Of a stretch of DNA of 64,000 nucleotides, positions 2,085 to 63,021 are shown one piece after another. This DNA is from a bacterium (GTDB taxonomy: Bacteria; Babelota; Babeliae; Babelales; UASB340): the NCBI GenBank assembly GCA_030629005.1, contig DAOVPV010000001.1, forward strand, positions 57,427 through 121,426, read 5' to 3'. Under the pieces are notes generated by a model. The model saw nothing but the letters and a program-made list of their open reading frames with translations, made no database searches and had not been told where the DNA came from. The translations under genes and the position numbers were made by a program. The stretch's first letter is position 1; each line of letters begins with the position of its first letter.

Positions 2085-2110
2085 TCTTCTTCCCTAAAAA
2101 TATAAAAAGT

Positions 2111-2150
2111 CACCTGGCCGTGCCAGCCATAGCTGCTTTGCAGCGACGGC
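2111..2150. repeat. GC-rich trailer directly 3' of tRNA-Leu
   Basis: minus-strand reading after CCA: GCCGTCGCTGCAAAGCAGCTATGGCTGGCACGGCCAGGTG; sharp GC island in AT-rich DNA. Confidence 0.6.
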
Positions 2151-4010: not shown

Positions 4011-4047
4011 GTCTTCGCTCCTTCGGAGCTTCGCCTGGCTCGGCCAT
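4011..4047. repeat. GC-rich trailer directly 3' of tRNA-Arg
   Basis: GTCTTCGCTCCTTCGGAGCTTCGCCTGGCTCGGCCATC; shares module CGCTCCTTyGGAGCTTC with 4685-4702. Confidence 0.6.
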
Positions 4048-4094
4048 CTACACATTATAGGTCCAATGGTAACAAAAAATTAAAACGACATTTT

Positions 4095-4124
4095 GTCATC
4101 CTGAATTTATTTCAGGATCCAGTC
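4095..4124 (+). repeat. about 30-bp palindromic repeat (GTCATCCTGAAyTTrTTTCAGGATCCAGTC family)
   Basis: gtcatcctgaatttatttcaggatccagtc; internal hairpin ATCCTGAA/TTCAGGAT; other copies listed separately. Confidence 0.8.
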
Positions 4125-4174
4125 GTAAAAAAATAGACAAATTTAATTGAAATTTATAAATTTATTTAGTATTC

Positions 4175-4266: not shown

Positions 4267-4360
4267 CCCTACGCTCTTCGCCTTCGGCTTGTAGCTTCCA
4301 GCCTACGCCCAAGTGGCTACGGCGGACAAGACGGGTGACAGGCCAGTCTACGCCGCTTGG
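4267..4360. repeat. GC-rich mosaic trailer directly 3' of tRNA-Ser(GCU)
   Basis: modules CTACGCTCTTCGCCTTCGGCTTGTAG (4269-4294), CCTACGCCCAAGTGGCTACGGCGGACAAG (4302-4330) and GGGTGACAGGCCAGT (4333-4347), all repeated after the next tRNA-Ser. Confidence 0.7.
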
Positions 4361-4407
4361 AACAAACTACATATGGCACAGCTAGCTTTTTAAAGTTTTT
4401 TAATAAC

Positions 4408-4484
4408 TAGATCCTGAAACGAGTTCAGGATGACAGATTGGCATTGCTTTTTTTGTCATCCTGAATTTATTTCAGAATCCAGTC
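4408..4484. repeat. inverted pair of the 30-bp palindromic repeat
   Basis: reverse copy tagatcctgaaacgagttcaggatgac (4408-4433), 21-nt spacer, forward copy gtcatcctgaatttatttcagaatccagtc (4455-4484). Confidence 0.8.
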
Positions 4485-4543
4485 ATAAAAAAACTCCAAA
4501 TAAAGCACTGAAAAAAAATACCGTAACTAAATAAAATCAAATT

Positions 4544-4635: not shown

Positions 4636-4773
4636 GTCTACGCTCTTCGCCTTCGGCTTGTAGTTTCGGGTGACAGGCCAGTTTACGCTCCTTTGGAGCT
4701 TCCAGCCTACGCCCAAATGGCTACGGCGGACAAGACGTCTGGCATGGCCATCTTTCGCCGCTCGACTTCGCCA
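4636..4773. repeat. GC-rich mosaic trailer directly 3' of tRNA-Ser(UGA)
   Basis: same modules as 4267-4360 in a different order (4638-4663, 4668-4682, 4685-4702, 4706-4734), plus a further GC-rich tail. Confidence 0.7.
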
Positions 4774-4922
4774 ACTTTTAGAACCCAATCCTCTAAAATA
4801 TTCTAAGTCTCAACTAGAAAAATAATCTTTATTCCTTAAATCTAGAAATAAATATTACTTATTTGTTAGCATAACGATTGTATAAATAAAATTACTTTTG
4901 ATATTCAGAAAAGGGAGAAAGT

Positions 4923-13139: not shown

Positions 13140-13236
13140 TAAGTTACAAGTTTATTATCCCTCTTTAATGAAAAAGGACAAATGCTCTATCAATTGAAAG
13201 TGCGAATTGAAGATAAACTTCACGTTTTTATGATTT

Positions 13237-13257
13237 TCGGAAGAAACATTTAATGTT
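13237..13257 (+). repeat. copy 1 of recurrent motif TCGGAAGAAACATTTAATGTT
   Basis: exact 21-mer; contains the 6-1-6 palindrome AACATT-T-AATGTT; intergenic. Confidence 0.8.
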
Positions 13258-13344
13258 TTGGAATAAAATAAATATAAGCTTACAATGTGTAACAATTTCA
13301 ATGTGTAAACTTTTATCGAACAAGCAGGAAATAACCTTAAGAAA

Positions 13345-15570: not shown

Positions 15571-15740
15571 GGACTTAGACCCCGCATCCAGTGCAGGGTA
15601 ACAAATTCAATAATATTAGACCGTTCGTAAGACCCATTCGACTTCGTGGCAAGCCACTACGCTCAGGGCGAACGGGAAACCGTACAAACCTGACCGTTCG
15701 CCCTGAGCGTAGCAACTTGTTGCGTAGTCGAATGGGTTTT
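15571..15740. repeat. GC-rich long imperfect palindromic element (MITE-like or structured RNA)
   Basis: nested inverted repeats ACCCATTCGACT (15632-15643)/AGTCGAATGGGT (15727-15738) and 19-bp CTACGCTCAGGGCGAACGG (15657-15675)/CCGTTCGCCCTGAGCGTAG (15694-15712); shares CCGTTCGCCCTG with the mutL insert. Confidence 0.7.
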
Positions 15741-15779
15741 ATCAAACTTATTCATATTAACAGCTTAAATAAAGGCTAT

Positions 15780-16164: not shown

Positions 16165-16566
16165 ATGAGGTTTGGAATGAATAATATAAAAAAAATAACA
16201 AAAATAAGCTTAATTCTTGTATTTGGATTGCTAATAACAAAAGCATATTCAAGAAACTTTGATGGAACCGGTCCAAGAGGATTCGGTCCAAAAACCGGTT
16301 TAGAACAGGGAGACTGCCAAGAACCCAACAAAAATCAACCTAAAACGGAACGTTTTGGTCGTAAACAACGAAGAAATTATAAACAAAGACAAGATTTTAA
16401 AAGAAATAATACAAGAAATGGTGGACTTGGCTTAGGAATCAATCGCAATAAAAATCTTAATTCACAAAAAAAGATTAAAGCGTTAAAATCACATCAAATT
16501 GAAGTTCAAAAAAAGATTGATGATTTATCGGAAGAAACATTTAATATTAATGAAAATTTAAAATAA
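16165..16566 (+). CDS. DUF5320-like protein with N-terminal signal/anchor sequence
   Basis: ITKISLILVFGLLITKAYS then RNFDGTGPRGFGPKTGLEQGDC (same motif as the upstream gene); C-terminal coiled coil. Confidence 0.65.
   Translation: MRFGMNNIKKITKISLILVFGLLITKAYSRNFDGTGPRGFGPKTGLEQGDCQEPNKNQPKTERFGRKQRRNYKQRQDFKRNNTRNGGLGLGINRNKNLNSQKKIKALKSHQIEVQKKIDDLSEETFNINENLK
16528..16548 (+). repeat. copy 2 of recurrent motif (TCGGAAGAAACATTTAATATT, 1 mismatch)
   Basis: inside the 3' end of 16165..16566, ending 20 nt before the DUF134 start codon. Confidence 0.7.
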
Positions 16567-16567
16567 A

Positions 16568-16843
16568 ATGGTTCGCCCAAGAAAAAGACGTTTTTTAAGG
16601 GGAGACCCAAAGGTTTCATATTTCAAACCTAGAGGAATCCCCTTAAGATCTTTAATGGAAATATCTTTAGGCCCAGATGAATTTGAAGCGATCAAGCTTC
16701 ATGACGTTGATGGTCTAAATCAAACCGACTCTGCTAAACAAATGAAAATCTCTCAACCAACATTTGCAAGAATTTTAAACCGAGCATACAAAAAAATCGC
16801 AACTGCACTTGTTGAAGGCAAAGCTATAAAAATAGAAAAGTAG
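16568..16843 (+). CDS. DUF134 (UPF0251) family predicted DNA-binding protein
   Basis: MVRPRKRRFL..FKPRGIP..L..DEFEAIKLHDVDGLNQTDSAKQMKISQPTFARILNRAYKKIATALVEGKAI matches the DUF134 pattern with sigma-region-4-like HTH. Confidence 0.85.
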   Translation: MVRPRKRRFLRGDPKVSYFKPRGIPLRSLMEISLGPDEFEAIKLHDVDGLNQTDSAKQMKISQPTFARILNRAYKKIATALVEGKAIKIEK

Positions 16844-16847
16844 GCTT

Positions 16848-17087
16848 TTATAAGAAATGTTTTTTAGTAAAAGCCCGACCTGAACCAGACTTTAAGTATC
16901 GTTCAAAATTCATAGCCAACTTTATCCTATTAAAACCAAATAAAGATACTAATTTCCATGGCGCATACTTAGAAGTATAGATACCATCATCAGAATTATG
17001 TTCATTTAAACGACGTTTTAAATTATTTGTAAACCCAATGTAAACTTGATTAGTACTGATCGATTTTATTATATAAACGTAAAACAT
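16848..17087 (-). CDS. small GIY-YIG nuclease family protein
   Basis: 79 aa; FYVYII..VYIGFT (GIY..YIG), LKRRLNEHN, C-terminal FERYLKSGSGRAFTKKHF. Confidence 0.85.
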   Translation of the reverse strand: MFYVYIIKSISTNQVYIGFTNNLKRRLNEHNSDDGIYTSKYAPWKLVSLFGFNRIKLAMNFERYLKSGSGRAFTKKHFL

Positions 17088-17109
17088 TATTATTTCATTT
17101 TTAAATTAA

Positions 17110-17223
17110 GACTGTCCTCCACCGCTCTTACAAGCTATGGCGGACACCTACGACATTTTCTATTTATTATCAAATTAAAACCAACAAAATCACTGGCCCT
17201 GGCCGCCGTAGCCTTGGCGTAGG
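17110..17223. repeat. bipartite GC-rich spacer between tRNA-Gln and the GIY-YIG gene
   Basis: module A 17191-17223 (minus strand CCTACGCCAAGGCTACGGCGGCCAGGGCCAGTG), AT-rich gap, module B 17110-17154 containing GTCCGCCATAGC. Confidence 0.7.
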
Positions 17224-17297
17224 TGGCTGGGATGAGAGGATTCGAACCTCTGTTGACGGAACCAGAATCCGTAGTCCTGCCACTAGACGACATCCCA
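17224..17297 (-). tRNA. tRNA-Gln (anticodon CUG), CCA encoded
   Basis: reverse complement TGGGATGTCGTCTAGTGGCAGGACTACGGATTCTGGTTCCGT..GAGGTTCGAATCCTCTCATCCCAGCCA. Confidence 0.9.
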
Positions 17298-17335
17298 AAA
17301 ATAAACTAGATTCTAACAAATAAGGAGATTTTGTC

Positions 17336-17557
17336 ATGCAAAACAATAATAAAAAGAATAATCAAACAATTCTAAAAAAAATATTTGGTATATTGCTAAT
17401 TCTAATTGGAATCTTGGGACTATTTTTACCTTTTTTACAAGGCATCGTATTTATAACAGCTGGCATAATTCTTTTAGGTAATAAAAAACTGCTAAACTTT
17501 TCCAAAAGATATTATTCAAAAATTAAAGAATATTTCAAAAAAAAATTTAGAAAATAA
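17336..17557 (+). CDS. small two-TM membrane protein
   Basis: 73 aa; IFGILLILIGILGLFLPFLQGIVFITAGIILLG hydrophobic hairpin; basic tail; GGAG RBS upstream. Confidence 0.45.
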   Translation: MQNNNKKNNQTILKKIFGILLILIGILGLFLPFLQGIVFITAGIILLGNKKLLNFSKRYYSKIKEYFKKKFRK

Positions 17558-17576
17558 TAGGCATTCTTCTTTTATA

Positions 17577-17658
17577 ACTGGATCCTGAAACAAATTCAGG
17601 ATAACACGTGCAAGAAATTATCTAATTTGTCATCCTGAACTTGTTTCAGGATCCAGTC
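17577..17658. repeat. inverted pair of the 30-bp palindromic repeat
   Basis: reverse copy actggatcctgaaacaaattcaggataac (17577-17605), spacer, forward copy gtcatcctgaacttgtttcaggatccagtc (17629-17658). Confidence 0.8.
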
Positions 17659-17770
17659 ATATAATAAATTCATATAAATAATATGTAAAAGCATACAAGT
17701 AATTAAGGGCTGCCTTTTACAGCAGCCCCATAATCCCTAGCTATCCCCCCAAATTTTGGGTAATTTTTGT

Positions 17771-23945: not shown

Positions 23946-24011
23946 AAACACAAAATCAAGCATTTGATTTTTAAAAAAATATGAACTAATCTGGCCTTCT
24001 TAACAATTTAA

Positions 24012-24032
24012 TCGGAAGAAACATTTAATGTT
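24012..24032 (+). repeat. copy 3 of recurrent motif TCGGAAGAAACATTTAATGTT
   Basis: exact 21-mer; its ATG (24028) is the listed start of ORF 24028..24684. Confidence 0.8.
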
Positions 24033-24684
24033 GAGGACCATACTTATGAATAAAAATATTATTTCTAGCTTATTTTTAATTTTATTACTTAATATTAACA
24101 CATCCGTAAAACCGAAAACAGCCGTAGAAGAACTTCCTGAAGACTTATTTGAAGCTTATGAAGGCAAAGCCAATTCTCAAAAATATAAAAGCTTTAAAGA
24201 ATCCGAAAATTACGAAGACGAAAATACTGAAATAGAAAAATCTAGCGAAAAATTAGTTAAGACTCTAAAATTTCTAAAAAATTCTGAATACAATAAACAA
24301 GCTTCCGAAACTTTAAAAGAATCATTAAAAGAAAGCTCCAAAGAATTAGAATCTCAAGATAGAAAAGAAATCAATGATATTCTAAGAAAATTAATCAATA
24401 TTAAAAAAAACAAAAAAAGTTATTCTGAACAATCTGTAAAAAACACAATCTTAAATTCAATAAACAATTTAACCAGCTCCGTAAAAAATGTAACTAGCTC
24501 TACATCAAAACTAGTCTGTATAACAATAATAATATCTTTCGCATACATGAACAACATGCTTACAAGCCACGTACTCCTAGATATTATAGAAGAATTACAC
24601 TATGTAGTTAGATGGGGAGCATGGATCCAAATTGGAAGAGTTGCTCTTGTATCAATACCAATCATTGGTAGTTTCTTTGCGTAA
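24028..24684 (+). CDS. hypothetical secreted/membrane K/E-rich protein (alternative start 24046)
   Basis: 218 aa; signal-like MNKNIISSLFLILLLNINTSV; charged helical middle; hydrophobic C-terminus. Confidence 0.45.
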   Translation: MLRTILMNKNIISSLFLILLLNINTSVKPKTAVEELPEDLFEAYEGKANSQKYKSFKESENYEDENTEIEKSSEKLVKTLKFLKNSEYNKQASETLKESLKESSKELESQDRKEINDILRKLINIKKNKKSYSEQSVKNTILNSINNLTSSVKNVTSSTSKLVCITIIISFAYMNNMLTSHVLLDIIEELHYVVRWGAWIQIGRVALVSIPIIGSFFA

Positions 24685-24754: not shown

Positions 24755-25375
24755 ATGAAAAAAATATTTATTCTTTTAATCAATCTTTTTTTGCTATTCA
24801 ATTTTGGAATCGCAAAAGAAAAAACAAATCCATTTTCTAAAATAGAAATAACAAGCAACAAAGCCATTGGTAAAAAAGATAACAATCAAGAAAACATTCT
24901 AATCTTTACTTATCTAGAAAATGTGAATATTAATTTTGCAGATAATAGTACAGCAAAGTGTAAAGAGTTAACCATCGAACTTGATACAAAAAAAAAATCA
25001 AACCCTAAAGAAGTAAAAATTACACAAAAAAATATCGATCTTGGTCCGATAACAAAAATAACTTTAAACAAAAATATTTTAATCTCACAAGCTAATAGAA
25101 AAATAAAAGCAGATAACGCAATCTTTTTACCAAATAAAAAAATATGCAATCTTTCCGGGAATATCGAAATAAAACAAGAAAAAAACAATTCTAAAGATCT
25201 ACCAATAACAACAAAATGTAACAAAGCAACTTTAAATTTAGAAACAGATCAAGTTTTATTCGAAGGAAAAACAGATCAACCTGTAAGTACAATAATATCA
25301 TTACAAAATTACCCTAGTCTAATCAAAACAAATAATCGAAAAAAACATTTAATGTTAAAGAAAAAAAATAAATGA
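24755..25375 (+). CDS. periplasmic OstA/LptA-like protein (tentative)
   Basis: signal peptide; repeated beta-strand pattern (IEITSNKAIG.., KCKELTIELD.., KIKADNAIFLPNKKICNLSGNIEI.., KCNKATLNLETDQVLFEGK) as in LptA/LptC-type jellyrolls; located after bamA. Confidence 0.45.
   Translation: MKKIFILLINLFLLFNFGIAKEKTNPFSKIEITSNKAIGKKDNNQENILIFTYLENVNINFADNSTAKCKELTIELDTKKKSNPKEVKITQKNIDLGPITKITLNKNILISQANRKIKADNAIFLPNKKICNLSGNIEIKQEKNNSKDLPITTKCNKATLNLETDQVLFEGKTDQPVSTIISLQNYPSLIKTNNRKKHLMLKKKNK
25336..25356 (+). repeat. copy 4 of recurrent motif (TCGAAAAAAACATTTAATGTT, degenerate left half)
   Basis: palindrome AACATTTAATGTT intact; ends 15 nt before the mutL ATG. Confidence 0.6.
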
Positions 25376-27291
25376 ATAAGATAAAAATATTATCACCCGA
25401 ACAAGCCGCAAAAATTGCAGCTGGAGAAGTTATAGAACGTCCATCTAATATCATAAAAGAAATAATAGAAAACTCTATAGACGCCAAAAGTACACAAATT
25501 AGTTTATACATAAAAGAAGCCGGCAAAAAATTAATTAGAATCGTAGACAATGGTACGGGTATGAATTTTAAAGATGCGCTATTGTGCTTTGCAAATCATG
25601 CAACCAGCAAAATAAATTCTATCGATGATTTAGAACAAATAAATTCTTTTGGCTTTAGAGGAGAAGCTCTATCTAGTATTAATGCAGTAAGCAAAGTAAC
25701 TCTTATTACAAAAACTAAATCGCAAGAGTTAGGAACAAAAATAGAATACACTGAAAATAAAGTATTATCCCAAGAAGAAACATCTTGTCCTGTTGGAACA
25801 GATCTACAAGTAAAAGAACTTTTTTACAACATCCCTGCCCGCAAAAAATTTTTAAAACAAGATGAAACAGAATGGAATCAAATTTTAAATATTTTTCAGG
25901 CTTTCTGCTTAAGCAATATTAATATTCACTTTAAATTATTTAAAGATGAAAGAATTGTAATAAATGCACCGGCAACAAAAAAACTACAAGATCGCACAGC
26001 CCAACTCTGGGGGCATAATTTTAGTCAAAATTTAATACAACTTAAAAATGATAGTGCTGATAAAATTGCAGCAAAAAATAATATTAAACTCACAGGCTCA
26101 ATTTCTAATCATAATTTTTGGCGATATGGAAGACAACAAATCTTCTTTTTTGTTAATGGTAGATACATAAAAAATACCGACCTAAACAAAGCATTGTTAA
26201 AGGGCTACACAGGAGTTTTACCCCCAGCAAGATTTCCTGCAGGTTTTATTTTTTTAGACGTTCCTAGTGATTTTGTAGACATCAACGTACATCCCAAGAA
26301 AGAAGAAGTTAGGTTTTTAAAACCAAATACCGTATCAAATATATTACAAAGATTTGTTAAAGAAACTTTAGATAGTAACGTTAGAAGTTTATTTGGTAGA
26401 GATGACAATGTTATGAATCCTAATATAGCTGTACCGTTTGATGAAAAAACAAACAGCTCCCCGTTCGCCCTGCCGTGCCCGACGAAGCCTTGCGCGAAGT
26501 CTGGGAGTAACCAACATAGCGTTAGCGAAGGTGGTTGTATCGAAGGGTCTAACCGAACGGCCCAAGCTCCACTTAACCTCAACACCTTTTACAATCCTAA
26601 TCAAGAATTAACAGAAACAAAAATTAGACAAAATACTCTTCGCCCACGCGAATTGGAATATGAGAAAACACAAACAACAATTTCTTCTCAAGAGAGCTCT
26701 CAACCAGAAGCAAATTTTAAAATAATTGGACAATATCTAAAAACATATATAATCACTCAAAATGGCGATAACTTAATTATTCTTGATCAACACGCAGCAC
26801 ATGAGCGAATAATCTATGATGAAATAACAAAAAACTTTGAGCAAAAATCTGGAATCAAATCAATGTTTCCTGAAATAATCAACTTAAATTCCCAGGAAAT
26901 AGAAAAAATAACTCTGGCACAAGAATTTTTATTAAACCAGGGGATAGGAATCGAAGTCTTTGGTAAAAACCAAATCGCCATAAAATCTAGTCCACCCAAA
27001 ATACAAAATCAATCCTTAAAAGAGCTAATTTTTGAAATCTTAGAGTTTATAAAAGAAAATGAAGCTCTAGATCAAGAAATATTCAGAAAAAAGCTCAACG
27101 ATAGAATACATGCTCAAATTGCATGCAAATCTGCAGTCAAAGCTGGTGATATTTTAACATTTGAGCAAATGGAAGAAATCGTTAAAAAACTACAAAAAAC
27201 TCAAAACCTTCTAACTTGCCCTCATGGCCGGCCAACAACATGGATTTTGAATAAACATAATATTGAAAAACAATTTAAAAGAAAATTGTAA
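25372..27291 (+). CDS. mutL: DNA mismatch repair protein MutL (endonuclease type) with in-frame GC-rich insert in the linker
   Basis: GHKL ATPase N-terminus (IAAGEVIERPSNIIKEIIENSIDA, DNGTGM, FGFRGEAL); C-terminal DQHAAHERIIYDE endonuclease motif; ATGA overlap with the upstream gene. Confidence 0.95.
   Translation: MNKIKILSPEQAAKIAAGEVIERPSNIIKEIIENSIDAKSTQISLYIKEAGKKLIRIVDNGTGMNFKDALLCFANHATSKINSIDDLEQINSFGFRGEALSSINAVSKVTLITKTKSQELGTKIEYTENKVLSQEETSCPVGTDLQVKELFYNIPARKKFLKQDETEWNQILNIFQAFCLSNINIHFKLFKDERIVINAPATKKLQDRTAQLWGHNFSQNLIQLKNDSADKIAAKNNIKLTGSISNHNFWRYGRQQIFFFVNGRYIKNTDLNKALLKGYTGVLPPARFPAGFIFLDVPSDFVDINVHPKKEEVRFLKPNTVSNILQRFVKETLDSNVRSLFGRDDNVMNPNIAVPFDEKTNSSPFALPCPTKPCAKSGSNQHSVSEGGCIEGSNRTAQAPLNLNTFYNPNQELTETKIRQNTLRPRELEYEKTQTTISSQESSQPEANFKIIGQYLKTYIITQNGDNLIILDQHAAHERIIYDEITKNFEQKSGIKSMFPEIINLNSQEIEKITLAQEFLLNQGIGIEVFGKNQIAIKSSPPKIQNQSLKELIFEILEFIKENEALDQEIFRKKLNDRIHAQIACKSAVKAGDILTFEQMEEIVKKLQKTQNLLTCPHGRPTTWILNKHNIEKQFKRKL
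26455..26570 (+). repeat. GC-rich palindromic element inserted in frame within mutL
   Basis: abrupt GC island; termini CCGTTCG (26461)/CGAACGG (26560) are inverted; AGCTCC occurs on both sides (26455-26460, 26565-26570); encodes SSPFALPCPTKPCAKSGSNQHSVSEGGCIEGSNRTAQAP. Confidence 0.7.
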
Positions 27292-54271: not shown

Positions 54272-54329
54272 AAAAAATAATGTTGTTTATAAAAAAATTA
54301 ATTTACTGGCCGAGCCATACTATATTAAA

Positions 54330-54569
54330 CTAAAAATGCCTTTTAGCAAAAGACCGACCTGAACCAGATTTTAAATACCTTTCAAACTCTTGAGCTTTTA
54401 TTTTATCAGCAAAGGCAATATATGTTTCTAATCTCCAAGGCTTTAATTTCGCAGTATGTTTAGACATAGAGCTGTTATGATAAAGTAAACGCTTTTTCAA
54501 ATCAACGGTTATACCAGTATATCTTCTATCTGGATTATCAATAGATTGAATTATATAAACGTAATGCAT
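54330..54569 (-). CDS. small GIY-YIG nuclease family protein (paralogue of 16848..17087)
   Basis: 79 aa; HYVYIIQS..RYTGIT, LKKRLLYHN, FERYLKSGSGRSFAKRHF. Confidence 0.85.
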   Translation of the reverse strand: MHYVYIIQSIDNPDRRYTGITVDLKKRLLYHNSSMSKHTAKLKPWRLETYIAFADKIKAQEFERYLKSGSGRSFAKRHF

Positions 54570-54595: not shown

Positions 54596-54706
54596 AGTCC
54601 GCCTTCGTGATACTTCGGCGTGACAGCCTTCGCACCGTCTTCTATAAATATTATTTTTAAAATAAATACCTTTACTGGCTCGCCAAGCCGTAGCTTTAGC
54701 GAAGGC
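54596..54706. repeat. bipartite GC-rich spacer between tmRNA and the GIY-YIG gene
   Basis: module A 54674-54706 (minus strand GCCTTCGCTAAAGCTACGGCTTGGCGAGCCAGT), AT-rich gap, module B 54596-54643. Confidence 0.7.
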
Positions 54707-55089
54707 TGGTGGAGGCGATGGGAGTCGAACCCATGTCCGCAACGCATTCAATTTCAAGCACTACATGTTTATCTCTCGAATATACTCTTACTTCACCTCA
54801 AGAGCAAAGAAAGAAGTAAAAGCCGGTTTAGTGATTTTCGCTTCATACAAAACCAAAAAATCTATAAAGCGAGTTCTATCTTGTTTAATACGAGCCAGTT
54901 CCACTGATAGACATGCTTCACTGACAAGACCTACTAATAGCTATTATTAGCAGACAGCGGTAGCCCCTGTAGGAATACCGGTATTAACTAAGTTTGCACT
55001 TATTAATTCGTATGATTTTTACAAGCTCCCATACAAAACTCGACATGCTCTCAAAACGTCAAACATCACGTCGAAACCGTGACGCCCCC
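54707..55089 (-). ncRNA. ssrA: tmRNA (SsrA)
   Basis: 5' GGGGGCGTCACGGTTTCGACG..; 3' ..GGGTTCGACTCCCATCGCCTCCACCA; acceptor pairing includes the G3-U wobble; internal tag frame GCA AAC .. TGC followed by TAA TAA TAG. Confidence 0.9.
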
Positions 55090-56906: not shown

Positions 56907-57587
56907 TTATTTTTTTAAAAAATCAAAAACAAACTTAGTCCAATTCTCCATATTTTCATAATACTCAGACAGTTCTTGCAATGTTAAAAGATTACCAGAC
57001 TTTAATTCTGATTTTACCTTTATATCTTGAGAATCACCTTTTAATAAATAAACAAAACCAACATGAACTTTGCCAACATCATTAGAATCATCATTTAAAA
57101 TACCAATAGGCTCTACTTTTAAATCTCCCGAATATTCAACTTCTTCCAAAAACTCTCTTTTTGCCCAAGCTGAAATATCGGAACCAGACAAGTCTTCTTC
57201 TCTTATATGCCCACCAATTCCAAGAGAATATAAATTTTGTAACCGAACTTCACTAGCCTTAGACTGACGTTGCATTAAAAAGTATTTATCTTCAAAATTA
57301 AAAATTAAATATGGAATTATTTGCTTATAATTTGGATCTATCTCCATTTGAGAACGCCACAAAAACTCTTTTTTATCTTCTATTAAATTTTGATAATAAT
57401 TAAAATCAACTTTTTCTAAACCAGAAATAACTTTTTCCCCAAAAAGCACATCTCGCTTTATAACTAATATTTTTTCATCTTCTTTTTTTACAAAAACATT
57501 CTTCGAATCAAGATTCTTTGAGTCAAGACTCTTTGAATCGAGATTCGTTGAATCGAGATTCGTTGAATTAACTTTTTGACTTTGCAT
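56907..57587 (-). CDS. NUDIX-family hydrolase with N-terminal pentapeptide-repeat extension
   Basis: Nudix box GGHIREEDLSGSDISAWAKREFLEEVEY; N-terminal STNLD/SKSLD/SKNLD repeats. Confidence 0.75.
   Translation of the reverse strand: MQSQKVNSTNLDSTNLDSKSLDSKNLDSKNVFVKKEDEKILVIKRDVLFGEKVISGLEKVDFNYYQNLIEDKKEFLWRSQMEIDPNYKQIIPYLIFNFEDKYFLMQRQSKASEVRLQNLYSLGIGGHIREEDLSGSDISAWAKREFLEEVEYSGDLKVEPIGILNDDSNDVGKVHVGFVYLLKGDSQDIKVKSELKSGNLLTLQELSEYYENMENWTKFVFDFLKK
57506..57570. repeat. 15-bp in-frame tandem repeat (about 4.3 units)
   Basis: gaatcaagattcttt / gagtcaagactcttt / gaatcgagattcgtt / gaatcgagattcgtt / gaatt. Confidence 0.85.
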
Positions 57588-59378: not shown

Positions 59379-59408
59379 GTCATCCTAAACCTGCTTCAAG
59401 GTCCAGTC
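59379..59408 (+). repeat. degenerate copy of the 30-bp palindromic repeat
   Basis: gtcatcctaaacctgcttcaaggtccagtc. Confidence 0.6.
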
Positions 59409-59471
59409 TTATAATTTTCCCATTTTGCAGCAAGCTGCGGGAAATTAACCTTAAAAACAAAAAGGTAACAA

Positions 59472-61920: not shown

Positions 61921-61950
61921 GACTAGATCCTGAACTTGTTTCAGGATCTC
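61921..61950 (-). repeat. copy of the 30-bp palindromic repeat (inverted orientation) directly after the leuS stop
   Basis: gactagatcctgaacttgtttcaggatctc. Confidence 0.75.
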
Positions 61951-61973
61951 TTCCTATAGAAAGGATAAGAGAC

Positions 61974-62733: not shown

Positions 62734-63021
62734 ATGAACTTTCTTTATATAAATGAAGAATTATCGGAAGAAACATTTAATGTTAACAAAAAATTAGAGT
62801 TACTAACTGAGAATATTTCTTTATTAGCCAATGACGACGATAACCTTAAAAATAATCTTGACGATAAAGATTTCGACGACAAAGATTTCGATGACAAAGA
62901 TTTCAATGATGACGATTTCGACGATGACAAAGATTGGAATGACGATGATGAAGATTGGGATGACGAAGACGAAGACGATGATGACGACGACGATGAAGAC
63001 GATGACGACGATGACAACTAA
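62734..63021 (+). CDS. hypothetical extremely acidic repeat protein
   Basis: 95 aa; DDKDF pentapeptide repeats then a poly-D/E tail; GGAAGAGGA RBS upstream; terminator-like hairpin downstream; coding status uncertain because of low complexity. Confidence 0.4.
   Translation: MNFLYINEELSEETFNVNKKLELLTENISLLANDDDNLKNNLDDKDFDDKDFDDKDFNDDDFDDDKDWNDDDEDWDDEDEDDDDDDDEDDDDDDN
62764..62784 (+). repeat. copy 5 of recurrent motif TCGGAAGAAACATTTAATGTT
   Basis: exact 21-mer, here inside ORF 62734..63021 (read as SEETFNV). Confidence 0.8.
62860..63018. repeat. 15-bp tandem repeats grading into a GAY/GAR low-complexity tract
   Basis: gacgataaagatttc / gacgacaaagatttc / gatgacaaagatttc / aatgatgacgatttc, then a (gac/gat/gaa)n tract. 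Confidence 0.8.

Follow-up and report, generated by a model that had tools for sequence, protein, structure and literature searches.

The superfamily of GIY-YIG nucleases is already known, and so, in principle, is the partnership of a nuclease with its own cognate palindromic repeats. The minimal prokaryotic Slx1-like type of GIY-YIG domain, lacking an auxiliary domain, has been treated earlier (PMC1564403). In the REPIN/RAYT systems (PMC3116915, PMC5581495), short imperfect palindromes are arranged as inverted doublets that form long hairpins; and in phage T4, segB is reported to be a GIY-YIG gene in a phage transfer RNA (tRNA) cluster that relies on conserved tRNA flanks (PMC2330249). Here we describe a composite unit from a 64,000-nucleotide (nt) stretch of a bacterial genome of the lineage Babelota; Babeliae; Babelales; UASB340 (assembly GCA_030629005.1, contig DAOVPV010000001.1, forward-strand positions 57,427 to 121,426), which is the window to which all coordinates refer unless the handle of another locus precedes them. 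The unit consists of a gene for a tRNA or transfer-messenger RNA (tmRNA), a structured GC-rich element that usually begins right after the CCA end of that gene, and a gene for a 79-amino-acid (aa) GIY-YIG nuclease. No description of GIY-YIG/UPF0213 genes at tRNA 3' ends, or of the element, was found in the full-text literature and RNA-motif discovery papers searched, a scope outside which most subscription journals lie; thus, the composite unit, its anchoring at tRNAs and the structured element appear to be new.

The window holds two such cassettes, both on the minus strand and both in the order tRNA-type gene, GC-rich module, AT-rich gap, second GC-rich module and 79-aa GIY-YIG open reading frame (ORF), and these are the only GIY-YIG copies that tblastn detects in the 64 kb. 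The upstream anchor of cassette 1 is a tRNA-Gln(ctg) with an encoded CCA end (17224-17297; called by ARAGORN and by Rfam RF00005 at 59.4 bits). Module A of element 1 (17191-17223, 73% GC; delimited by sequence and covariance-model alignment) begins at the first base past this CCA and consists of the 5' strand of helix P1 (CCTACGCC), next GCTACGGCGG, and last the small hairpin GGCC-AGG-GCC(AGT). The AT-rich loop of P1 (17155-17190, 14% GC), whose length and sequence vary between loci, leads to module B (17110-17154, 58% GC; from the covariance model and helix covariation), which is made up of the P1 3' strand CGTAGG (17147-17152) and the hairpin P3 (17114-17145; GTCCGCC-ATAGC-loop-GCGGT-GGAGGAC). 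ORF 1 (16848-17087, 28% GC; PF01541 E = 6e-17) starts 22 nt beyond module B. The anchor of cassette 2 is a tmRNA with a CCA end (54707-55089; ARAGORN, and Rfam RF00023 at 163 bits), followed by element 2 (54597-54706; 58.2 bits and E = 1.7e-9 with the covariance model, RNA fold z = -2.6) and ORF 2 (54330-54569, 79 aa; PF01541 E = 5e-15). By sequence, element 2 divides into module A (GCCTTCGC..GCTACGGCTTGGCGAGCCAGT; 54669-54706), an AT loop (54641-54668, 4% GC) and module B (GCGAAGGC-TG-P3 hairpin; 54597-54640). Just past the stop codon of ORF 2, a partial repeat of the 3' part of module A was recognized by eye (TATGGCTCGGCCAGTAAA; 54302-54319, minus strand), so that module B and ORF 2 lie between direct repeats, as they do at two loci of other organisms, L003 and L033. 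No ORF besides that of the GIY-YIG protein, and no integrase, is present in either cassette.

Identity between the two proteins is 53% (42/80; E = 2e-25), and they have the C-terminus FERYLKSGSGRxFxKxHF in common. An earlier sequence-only reading of the window had described the anatomy of both cassettes, with the same order, strand and spacing, and had judged the nucleases by eye to be about half identical with a common ending; every one of these features is present where it had placed them. Against a window GC content of 30.8%, the modules stand at 58-73%, the gaps at 4-14% and the ORFs at 28-31%, with ~22% GC at third codon positions. That the modules have stayed GC-rich while the ORFs and loops drifted to host composition points to constraint or selection on the modules and argues against a recent transfer.

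The same arrangement recurs widely. Hundreds of relatives ~80 aa long, bearing names from Dependentiae and Alphaproteobacteria, came up in a protein search, and an alignment-based scan of one genome per species confirmed at least 573 loci, the best-scoring 80 of which were kept for the locus statistics. These 80 span more than ten phyla and come from Dependentiae/Babeliales, several candidate-phyla-radiation (CPR) groups, Alpha-, Gamma- and Deltaproteobacteria, Verrucomicrobiota, Lentisphaerota, Planctomycetota, Fibrobacterota, Armatimonadota, KSB1 and Tectomicrobia. According to ARAGORN, a tRNA or tmRNA on the same strand ends 55-410 nt upstream of the ORF at 65 of the 80 loci (binomial P ~4e-84 under an assumed chance expectation of 3%), and Rfam adds two tmRNAs that ARAGORN missed, which brings the loci with a tRNA-type gene upstream to 67/80. 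The upstream tRNAs represent at least 13 amino-acid identities, in addition to tmRNA, and repeats adjoin the nuclease gene in ~78 of the 80. Thus, far from lacking such a context, other GIY-YIG copies bear out the recurrent unit of tRNA-type gene, GC element and nuclease that the sequence-only reading had proposed.

Departures from this arrangement are of a few kinds. A tRNA 3' fragment comprising T-arm, acceptor and CCA lies immediately upstream of the element at L057 and L061; a CCA-ending sequence with no called tRNA precedes it at L001, L008, L039, L040, L050 and L051; ...CTCA stands in place of CCA at L056; a contig edge lies upstream at L032; a tandem array begins at a tRNA-Ser 1.2 kb upstream at L071; module A alone, with no tRNA or CCA remnant, is upstream at L029; and the ORF is inverted relative to the tmRNA and element at L021. 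A phage-type integrase island lies between tRNA and cassette at L099 (1579-2760) and L100, and an HTH_17 gene occupies that place at L102, while the downstream DOPA-dioxygenase neighbor is constant in all three; such integrase islands explain the cassettes preceded by a mere tRNA 3' fragment. Other local variants were seen: at L013 a second complete cassette of element and 80-aa GIY-YIG ORF (L013:5206-5583) lies 2 kb downstream of the first, with ...ACGCCA but no tRNA upstream and a 481-aa ORF between both cassettes. In the Babeliales locus L002 (L002:2825-2840), the tRNA-Gln at the cassette has no encoded CCA (...CCCAG|CTTTCGC), which may reflect slippage deletion of one CCAG, in which case the element would abut the discriminator base. 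At L037, L046 and L058, a partial or frameshifted GIY-YIG-like coding stretch comes straight after the intact ORF, which suggests tandem duplicates or decaying copies.

The spacer between tRNA-type gene and ORF is a conserved structured element of ~90 nt with one plan common to all phyla sampled. Directly after CCA, GCCTTCGC and a variable extension form the P1 5' strand; there follow a small hairpin P2 (GCTWCGGCTGG-CASG-CCAGCC) and a variable linker, then the complement of the extension with GCGAAGGC as the P1 3' strand, then TG, and finally the hairpin P3 (GTCCGCC-GWAGC-loop-GCGAAG-GCGGAC). In these terms, module A corresponds to the P1 5' strand with P2, and module B to the P1 3' strand, TG and P3. 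On a hand-trimmed alignment of 23 spacers, P1, P2 and P3 are 91.4% paired, as against 30-52% with the partner slid; the helix covariation score is 0.262, as against at most 0.052 for controls; 13 base pairs change on both sides; and none of 500 shuffles reaches the observed values. A covariance model built from the spacers of other organisms matches exactly two places in the window with filters off, element 1 being found at 17114-17224 (51.1 bits, E ~4e-8), and gives 90 sense-strand matches in the 516 kb of window and loci; being home-made, this model yields rough E-values and alignments that favor its own structure. The element starts right after CCA (offset 0) in 48 of the 62 tRNA-adjacent copies and at +3 in nine more, which belong to a TCCTGCTTCGC subtype. 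A conserved TGG after the repeats is able to pair with CCA.

The conservation and covariation of the GC modules mark them as a specific functional sequence. Several identities for it were considered and set aside. A known RNA family was rejected, since in Rfam 15 only tRNA and tmRNA were matched at the gathering score and a search of two elements in E-value mode gave nothing near threshold; a tRNA-like mimic was rejected, as neither ARAGORN nor the Rfam tRNA model calls the element; a self-cleaving leader like that of hepatitis delta virus was rejected by inspection, because only 3-6 nt separate P3 from the start codon in some loci and leave no room for a closing strand; and an intrinsic terminator was rejected, no T-run terminators having been found.

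The element is itself built of smaller repeats. The covariance model gives a plus-strand match at 17195-17228, where the antisense of module A with the tRNA CCA resembles the P3 part; modules A and B are thus inverted copies of one imperfect palindrome of ~30 nt, with GTCCGCC-GWAGC-loop-GCGAAG-GCGGAC as its unit. In addition to the helices of the plan, the GCTWCGG segment is 84% paired with the P3 5' strand (covariation score 0.20) and the first word is 100% paired with the GCTWCGG segment (0.27). As these extra pairings covary too, a single word is present five times in the element, its copies alternating in orientation and evolving in concert. Such concerted words might belong to an attenuator-like RNA with mutually exclusive pairings or be DNA repeats kept alike, and either would fit. 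Module order is not rigid: the hairpin is closed first and the GCTACGG-P2 piece comes after P3 in some loci (e.g., L027, L037, L058), and the order is A-ORF-B in L025, L029 and L043.

Copies also occur apart from nuclease genes. Nine of 24 tRNA-type genes with no GIY-YIG gene downstream carry the motif directly after CCA; L074 and L052 have complete ORF-less elements; 4-5 complete elements stand in tandem after a tRNA-Ser(cga) at L071:1776-2270, with the GIY-YIG ORF 1.2 kb from the tRNA; and two or three tandem units are found at L060, L080, L024, L026 and L020. Within the window, ORF-less tails of the module A type follow tRNA-Leu (2106-2150, minus strand; GCCGTCGC-TGCAAAGCA-GCTATGGCTGGCACGGCCAGG) and tRNA-Arg (4011-4055, plus strand; GTCTTCGC-TCCTTCGGA-GCTTCGCCTGGCTCGGCCA), both recognized by sequence. 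Chains of GC-rich modules follow tRNA-Ser(gct) (4267-4364, plus strand; the 61-nt repeat D14 and alignment) and, in a different module order, tRNA-Ser(tga) (4636-4776, plus strand; repeat comparison and alignment). These serine tails are mosaics of shared blocks, each internal block again starting after CCA, and block b of the first (~4297-4333) is most like module A of cassette 1. Only tRNA-Met among the tRNA genes of the window has no GC-rich tail, and the 64 kb contain in all two full elements, four tRNA tails and two related GC-rich sites. Hence, of the view that the GC modules are a recognition or repair sequence belonging to the nuclease, the functional sequence stands, but its confinement to nuclease loci does not, given the tails after tRNA-Leu, tRNA-Arg and both tRNA-Ser genes.

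Related units also lie away from tRNAs. At 26446-26574 on the plus strand, a GC-rich stretch with two P3-palindrome-like units (CGAC-GAAGC-CTTGC-GCGAAG-TC and CCAAC-ATAGC-GTTA-GCGAAG-GTGG) is inserted in frame within a 639-aa MutL-like ORF (25372-27291), where it encodes ...SSPFALPCPTKPCAKSGSNQHSVSEGGCIEGSNRTAQAP... as part of the linker that joins the N-terminal to the C-terminal domain. Between genes at 15627-15742, a stretch of 116 nt forms a near-perfect hairpin (folding free energy dG -88.5 kcal/mol, z = -10.5) that contains module-A-like words (CTTCGTGGCAAGCCACTACGC) and has no adjoining tRNA.

The nuclease is small and well defined. The two window proteins score 62.1 and 56.0 bits against PF01541, whose curated cut-off is 22.6, and an AlphaFold2 model with a mean predicted local distance difference test (pLDDT) of 92.2 has the element order beta-beta-alpha-beta-alpha-alpha of the alpha/beta GIY-YIG fold. 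Invariant among 24 aligned sequences are V4, Y5, Y16, G18, R26, H30, N31 and E62; from knowledge of the family, we take Y5 and Y16, as the GIY/YIG-type tyrosines, to form the catalytic core together with Arg26 and the metal-binding Glu62. By Pfam, alignment and the AlphaFold model, the catalytic domain makes up the whole 79-aa protein, with no DNA-binding domain, and the subfamily is marked by the C-terminal motif (F)E(R/K)YLKSGSGRxFxKRH. Foldseek returns Slx1 at template-modeling (TM) scores of 0.70-0.73 and 27-34% identity, as against 0.55 for the I-TevI catalytic domain; in a PDB profile search, UPF0213 BH0048 (1zg2) is matched at 8e-11 and SLX1 nuclease domains at 5e-9 (7wme) to 1e-6, EF2693 and 1ywl are matched as well, and I-TevI is found far more weakly (0.29). 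Judged by these profiles and the predicted fold, the protein is a minimal stand-alone nuclease domain of the Slx1/UPF0213 (COG2827) type, nearer to Slx1/UPF0213 than to the UvrC or homing-endonuclease branch. The family numbers 4,811 cluster representatives (50% identity, E <= 1e-10); no specific NCBIfam match and no PADLOC match to defense or toxin-antitoxin families was found for the protein. Many database homologs (P0121-P0195) have false N-terminal extensions of 25-90 aa that translate the GC element (..SEALAKEG.., ..SFSEGG.., ..ATAGKPA..) or the tRNA T-arm (RGFESLPLRH), the gene callers having carried the ORF on across the element and at times as far as the tRNA.

Within orthologous groups, the ratio of nonsynonymous to synonymous substitution (dN/dS) is 0.02-0.2 with dS at or near saturation, which together indicate long residence under strong constraint. 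The groups compared were Bradyrhizobium and relatives, all of which have the cassette at tRNA-Ala(ggc), the alphaproteobacterial tRNA-Pro and tRNA-Thr groups, Sneathiella, and a tRNA-Lys-Glu group in Dependentiae-like genomes. At the same time, a neighbor-joining tree of 82 proteins has clades that mix phyla and tRNA identities; e.g., one clade carrying the TCCTGCTTCGC subtype unites Verrucomicrobiales, several Alphaproteobacteria and Tectomicrobia, at tRNA-Ser, Val, Gly and Tyr. A genome may hold several diverged nuclease paralogs at different tRNAs. Mobility of the cassette over long evolutionary time is thus supported, by the mixing of phyla and tRNA identities in protein clades and by the occurrence of chains, tandem arrays and copies with no ORF. 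An exact-protein look-up of P0097 returned a single downstream context with different integrase islands upstream and no transposition. Among 2.9 million viral contigs there is one close match, to a chromosomal-looking Reyranella-type region, and one query against 72,556 plasmids gave no match.

As regards expression, the sole good promoter candidate for the tRNA-element-ORF unit of cassette 1 is a site at 17310-17337 on the minus strand (ATGACA, 16 nt, TG-TAGAAT with an extended -10), which matches 10 of 12 positions in a consensus scan and lies ~13 nt upstream of tRNA-Gln. A consensus scan shows no terminator-like site between either tRNA-type gene and its ORF, and a single promoter-like match was seen internally, a weak one that would give no leader. 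As neither a convincing promoter for the unit alone nor a terminator after the tRNA is present, the unit would most likely be transcribed by read-through from the tRNA. P3 ends at most 12 nt before the start codon in 25 of 70 loci, and in these the sole candidate for a ribosome-binding site is the 3' strand of P3 (GAAGGAGG or GAAGGCGG). Co-transcription with the tRNA and masking of translation by P3 are inferred from these sequence features.

The anatomy, the adjacency to tRNAs, a conserved and covarying element, the protein fold, purifying selection and ORF-less copies are all directly seen. We read them as the marks of a long-resident chromosomal cassette, in which a palindrome doublet and an Slx1-type nuclease are anchored 3' of tRNA-type genes and are probably expressed from the tRNA promoter; the nuclease would act on hairpins or cruciforms that its own repeats form in DNA, and repair would copy the repeats. 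We put the probability of this reading as a whole at roughly 45%. The inverted palindromes, which could also form the long outer helix P1, would be transcribed with the gene by read-through from the tRNA promoter, and the P3 3' strand, serving as the ribosome-binding site in many loci, would keep translation low. Most likely, the Slx1-like, structure-specific nuclease would nick or cut the hairpin or cruciform DNA of its own repeats, whereupon recombinational repair would copy and homogenize these and, rarely, place repeats and gene behind another tRNA gene. Such copying would leave chains, tandem arrays and copies with no ORF in its wake, in the manner of RAYT transposases acting on REPINs. 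In its evolution, the cassette behaves as a lasting resident of the chromosome, inherited vertically over genus-level times with rare moves between tRNA sites and phyla.

A number of points weigh against this reading, which overlaps with its rivals. The reading does not account for the way in which a 79-aa catalytic domain would recognize tRNA 3' ends. There is no conserved right end, unlike in a two-ended transposon: repeats lie downstream in ~10 of 82 loci and are real in few (L003, L033, L063 and cassette 2). A general right end or target-site duplication was rejected, as a loose regular expression is no commoner downstream than in control regions. The near-absence from viruses, the lack of plasmid matches, the purifying selection and the genus-wide orthologous positions would fit a selfish element no better than a host gene behind a conserved leader. 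No empty site in a close relative was found in one metagenome scan, which returned only unrelated organisms. The counts of G.U (39) and A.C (29) in the 90 copies do not discriminate between hairpins as RNA and hairpins as DNA. Finally, neighbor joining on 80 residues is weak at such length, and the sample of the best-scoring 80 loci covers this subfamily only.

The alternative that survives best, although we consider it rather unlikely, is that the element is a cis-acting structured RNA leader that lets a host-beneficial nuclease gene share the transcript of a tRNA. P1, coming right after CCA, would mark the precursor cut for tRNA maturation; P3 would hide the ribosome-binding site; the alternative pairings of regions 1:2, 2:3 and 3:4 would act as a translational switch; the ORF-less copies would be decayed leftovers; and the nuclease would serve DNA repair unrelated to the repeats. 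Such a leader would account for an element that is always in the sense of tRNA and ORF and begins exactly at CCA, for conservation upstream of the ORF only, for the position of the P3 3' strand GAAGGAGG at ribosome-binding-site distance in 25 of 70 loci, for mutually exclusive pairings that all covary, and for the lack of a terminator between tRNA and ORF. A gene under strong purifying selection, vertically stable, not found on plasmids and almost absent from viruses, would also suit it, and structured RNAs typically keep GC-rich stems, as the element does where the genome stands at 31% GC. It does not sit well, however, with complete ORF-less elements, chains and tandem arrays of 2-5 units, with a variable module order that includes A-ORF-B and the inverted ORF of L021, with related units away from tRNAs and even within the mutL ORF, with several diverged paralogs per genome at different tRNAs, or with the lack of a G.U excess over A.C.

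Less probable again is a nuclease coupled to RNA, in which excess element RNA from the tRNA promoter would restrain the nuclease or be its substrate. This might take the form of a pair resembling a type III toxin-antitoxin system or of an enzyme for processing tRNA trailers on which the tailed tRNAs depend (a "tRNA-tail addiction"), so that nuclease activity or the maturation of tailed tRNAs would be tied to tRNA transcription. Tandem structured units upstream of a nuclease gene are found in ToxI/ToxN as well; extra ORF-less units stand behind other tRNAs; the cassette is stable under strong selection; and CCA could pair with the conserved TGG after the repeats. Against this, no GIY-YIG enzyme is known to act on, or be regulated by, RNA, and PADLOC matches the protein to no defense or toxin-antitoxin family. 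The element subtype does track the protein clade, but physical linkage alone explains their co-variation. A hint at RNA metabolism comes from the TrmH fusion of prokaryotic Slx1-like domains (PMC1564403). If coupling of this kind were true, it would be the first case of a GIY-YIG enzyme governed by a structured RNA.

We consider it improbable, too, that the cassette is a classical free-standing homing gene, whose product would cleave, in incoming or sister DNA, those tRNA 3' flanks that lack the cassette, with double-strand-break repair copying the cassette in and the conserved tRNA as one homology arm, as for T4 SegB. The sequence-only reading had suggested a minimal homing or mobile unit, and the long-term mobility holds, since protein clades mix phyla and tRNA identities and ORF-less copies and arrays exist; a GIY-YIG nuclease beside tRNA genes, the direct repeats of module A that flank module B and ORF in L003, L033 and cassette 2, and the precedent of SegB (PMC2330249) would also agree with homing. 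A classical homing endonuclease is not supported: the protein is a 79-aa catalytic domain with no DNA-binding domain, there is no conserved right end, and stable orthologous positions across genera with saturated dS and dN/dS far below 1 are unlike the cycle of gain, decay and loss of homing genes. Co-conversion of the tRNA with the cassette was rejected, because the adjacent tRNAs track host phylogeny over their whole length. Moreover, tRNA-Gln genes with an identical 3' half carry nothing in other organisms, a metagenome scan with that half returning 14 cassette-free loci, none syntenic or closely related; and the cassette is nearly absent from viruses and was not found on plasmids. Nor does the tRNA 3' end serve as an integration site in the integrase sense that the same reading had invoked: there is no integrase, and no tRNA 3' segment is repeated downstream of the ORFs in either cassette or in the downstream regions of the other loci. 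The functional link between nuclease and tRNA-type transcripts, which that reading had offered as an alternative, may hold. That small unrelated ORFs merely lie near tRNA-type genes, with the GC stretches as trailers or terminators, could draw on the GC-rich tails behind most window tRNAs, ORF or not, but is refuted by a context kept in 67 of 80 loci from many phyla, covariation, model matches of 51-80 bits, the lack of T-run terminators, and ORFs under purifying selection with a confident GIY-YIG fold.

The window contains other repeats that are separate from the GC element. An AT-rich palindromic family (TTTGTCATCCTGAAyTTrTTTCAGGATCCAGTC) has copies at 4092-4144, 4396-4454 (inverted), 4452-4504, 17567-17606 (inverted), 17626-17678, 59382-59413 and 61927-61958; two of these precede the tRNA-Ser genes by 30-40 nt, and tRNA-Gln has an inverted pair ~270-380 nt upstream. 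A repeated word, ATCGGAAGAAACATTTAATGTT, occurs at 13234-13277, 16525-16568, 24009-24052, 25333-25376 and 62754-62796, often just upstream of a start codon (e.g., that of the DUF134 gene at 16568 and of mutL at 25372); it reads in frame as ...SEETFNV... at some sites and is preceded by stop codons at others, so that a signal in DNA or RNA is more probable than a peptide motif. At 62830-63017, periodic repeats of 9-21 nt (GACGAyAAAGATTTC...) encode an acidic tract rich in Asp and Glu.

If the cassette is what we propose, a very common genomic unit, with ~4,800 protein clusters at 50% identity, has been overlooked by annotation, and a conserved structured element of ~90 nt is to be added beyond those in Rfam. 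The enigmatic bacterial Slx1/UPF0213 mini-nucleases would thereby gain a concrete context, and one would have to ask how the 3' end of a tRNA matures when a stable helix comes right after CCA.

Among described systems, integrative islands that target tRNA or tmRNA genes by tyrosine integrases likewise use the 3' end of such genes; unlike them, the cassette has no integrase and no duplicated flanking tRNA 3' segment, and islands of this kind insert between tRNA and cassette and push the latter away together with a tRNA 3' fragment. The cassette resembles T4 SegB in being a GIY-YIG gene among or beside tRNA genes. SegB is much longer than 79 aa and carries a DNA-binding region. Unlike the phage-borne SegB, which is not known to have a GC-rich palindromic element or a fixed CCA junction, the cassette sits stably in the chromosome and is nearly missing from viral contigs. 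The shuffling of palindromic modules in the tRNA-Ser tails and the occasional in-frame insertion, as in the linker of mutL, recall the Rickettsia palindromic elements and the mosaics of the BIME type; the present repeats differ from these in belonging to another sequence family, in being GC-rich in an AT-rich genome and in their anchoring at tRNAs and linkage to a nuclease.

On the side of the protein, Slx1/UPF0213 (COG2827, YhbQ/YazA-type) and eukaryotic SLX1 have the same fold and catalytic core as the window proteins. What sets the window subfamily apart from the descriptions of YhbQ/YazA is its own C-terminal motif and the fixed context of tRNA, element and ORF (yhbQ of E. coli is not known to be adjacent to a tRNA), and it differs from eukaryotic SLX1 in having neither an Slx4-like partner nor a zinc finger. 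The closest parallel in genomic organization is REPIN/RAYT: in both, a nuclease gene that is vertically inherited under purifying selection is flanked by its own inverted palindrome doublets, and non-autonomous copies of the repeats occur elsewhere in the genome. The enzyme here is a GIY-YIG nuclease, whereas RAYT is an HUH/Y1 transposase of the IS200/IS605 type; the repeats are fixed at the base after the CCA of a tRNA or tmRNA, whereas REPINs are scattered between genes; and, again unlike REPIN/RAYT, there are several diverged paralogs per genome and few repeats in the 64 kb seen. The likeness is one of anatomy, and the interaction of the nuclease with the repeats is putative; should it hold, the cassette would represent a second, independent partnership of a nuclease with palindromic repeats beside that of REPIN and RAYT.

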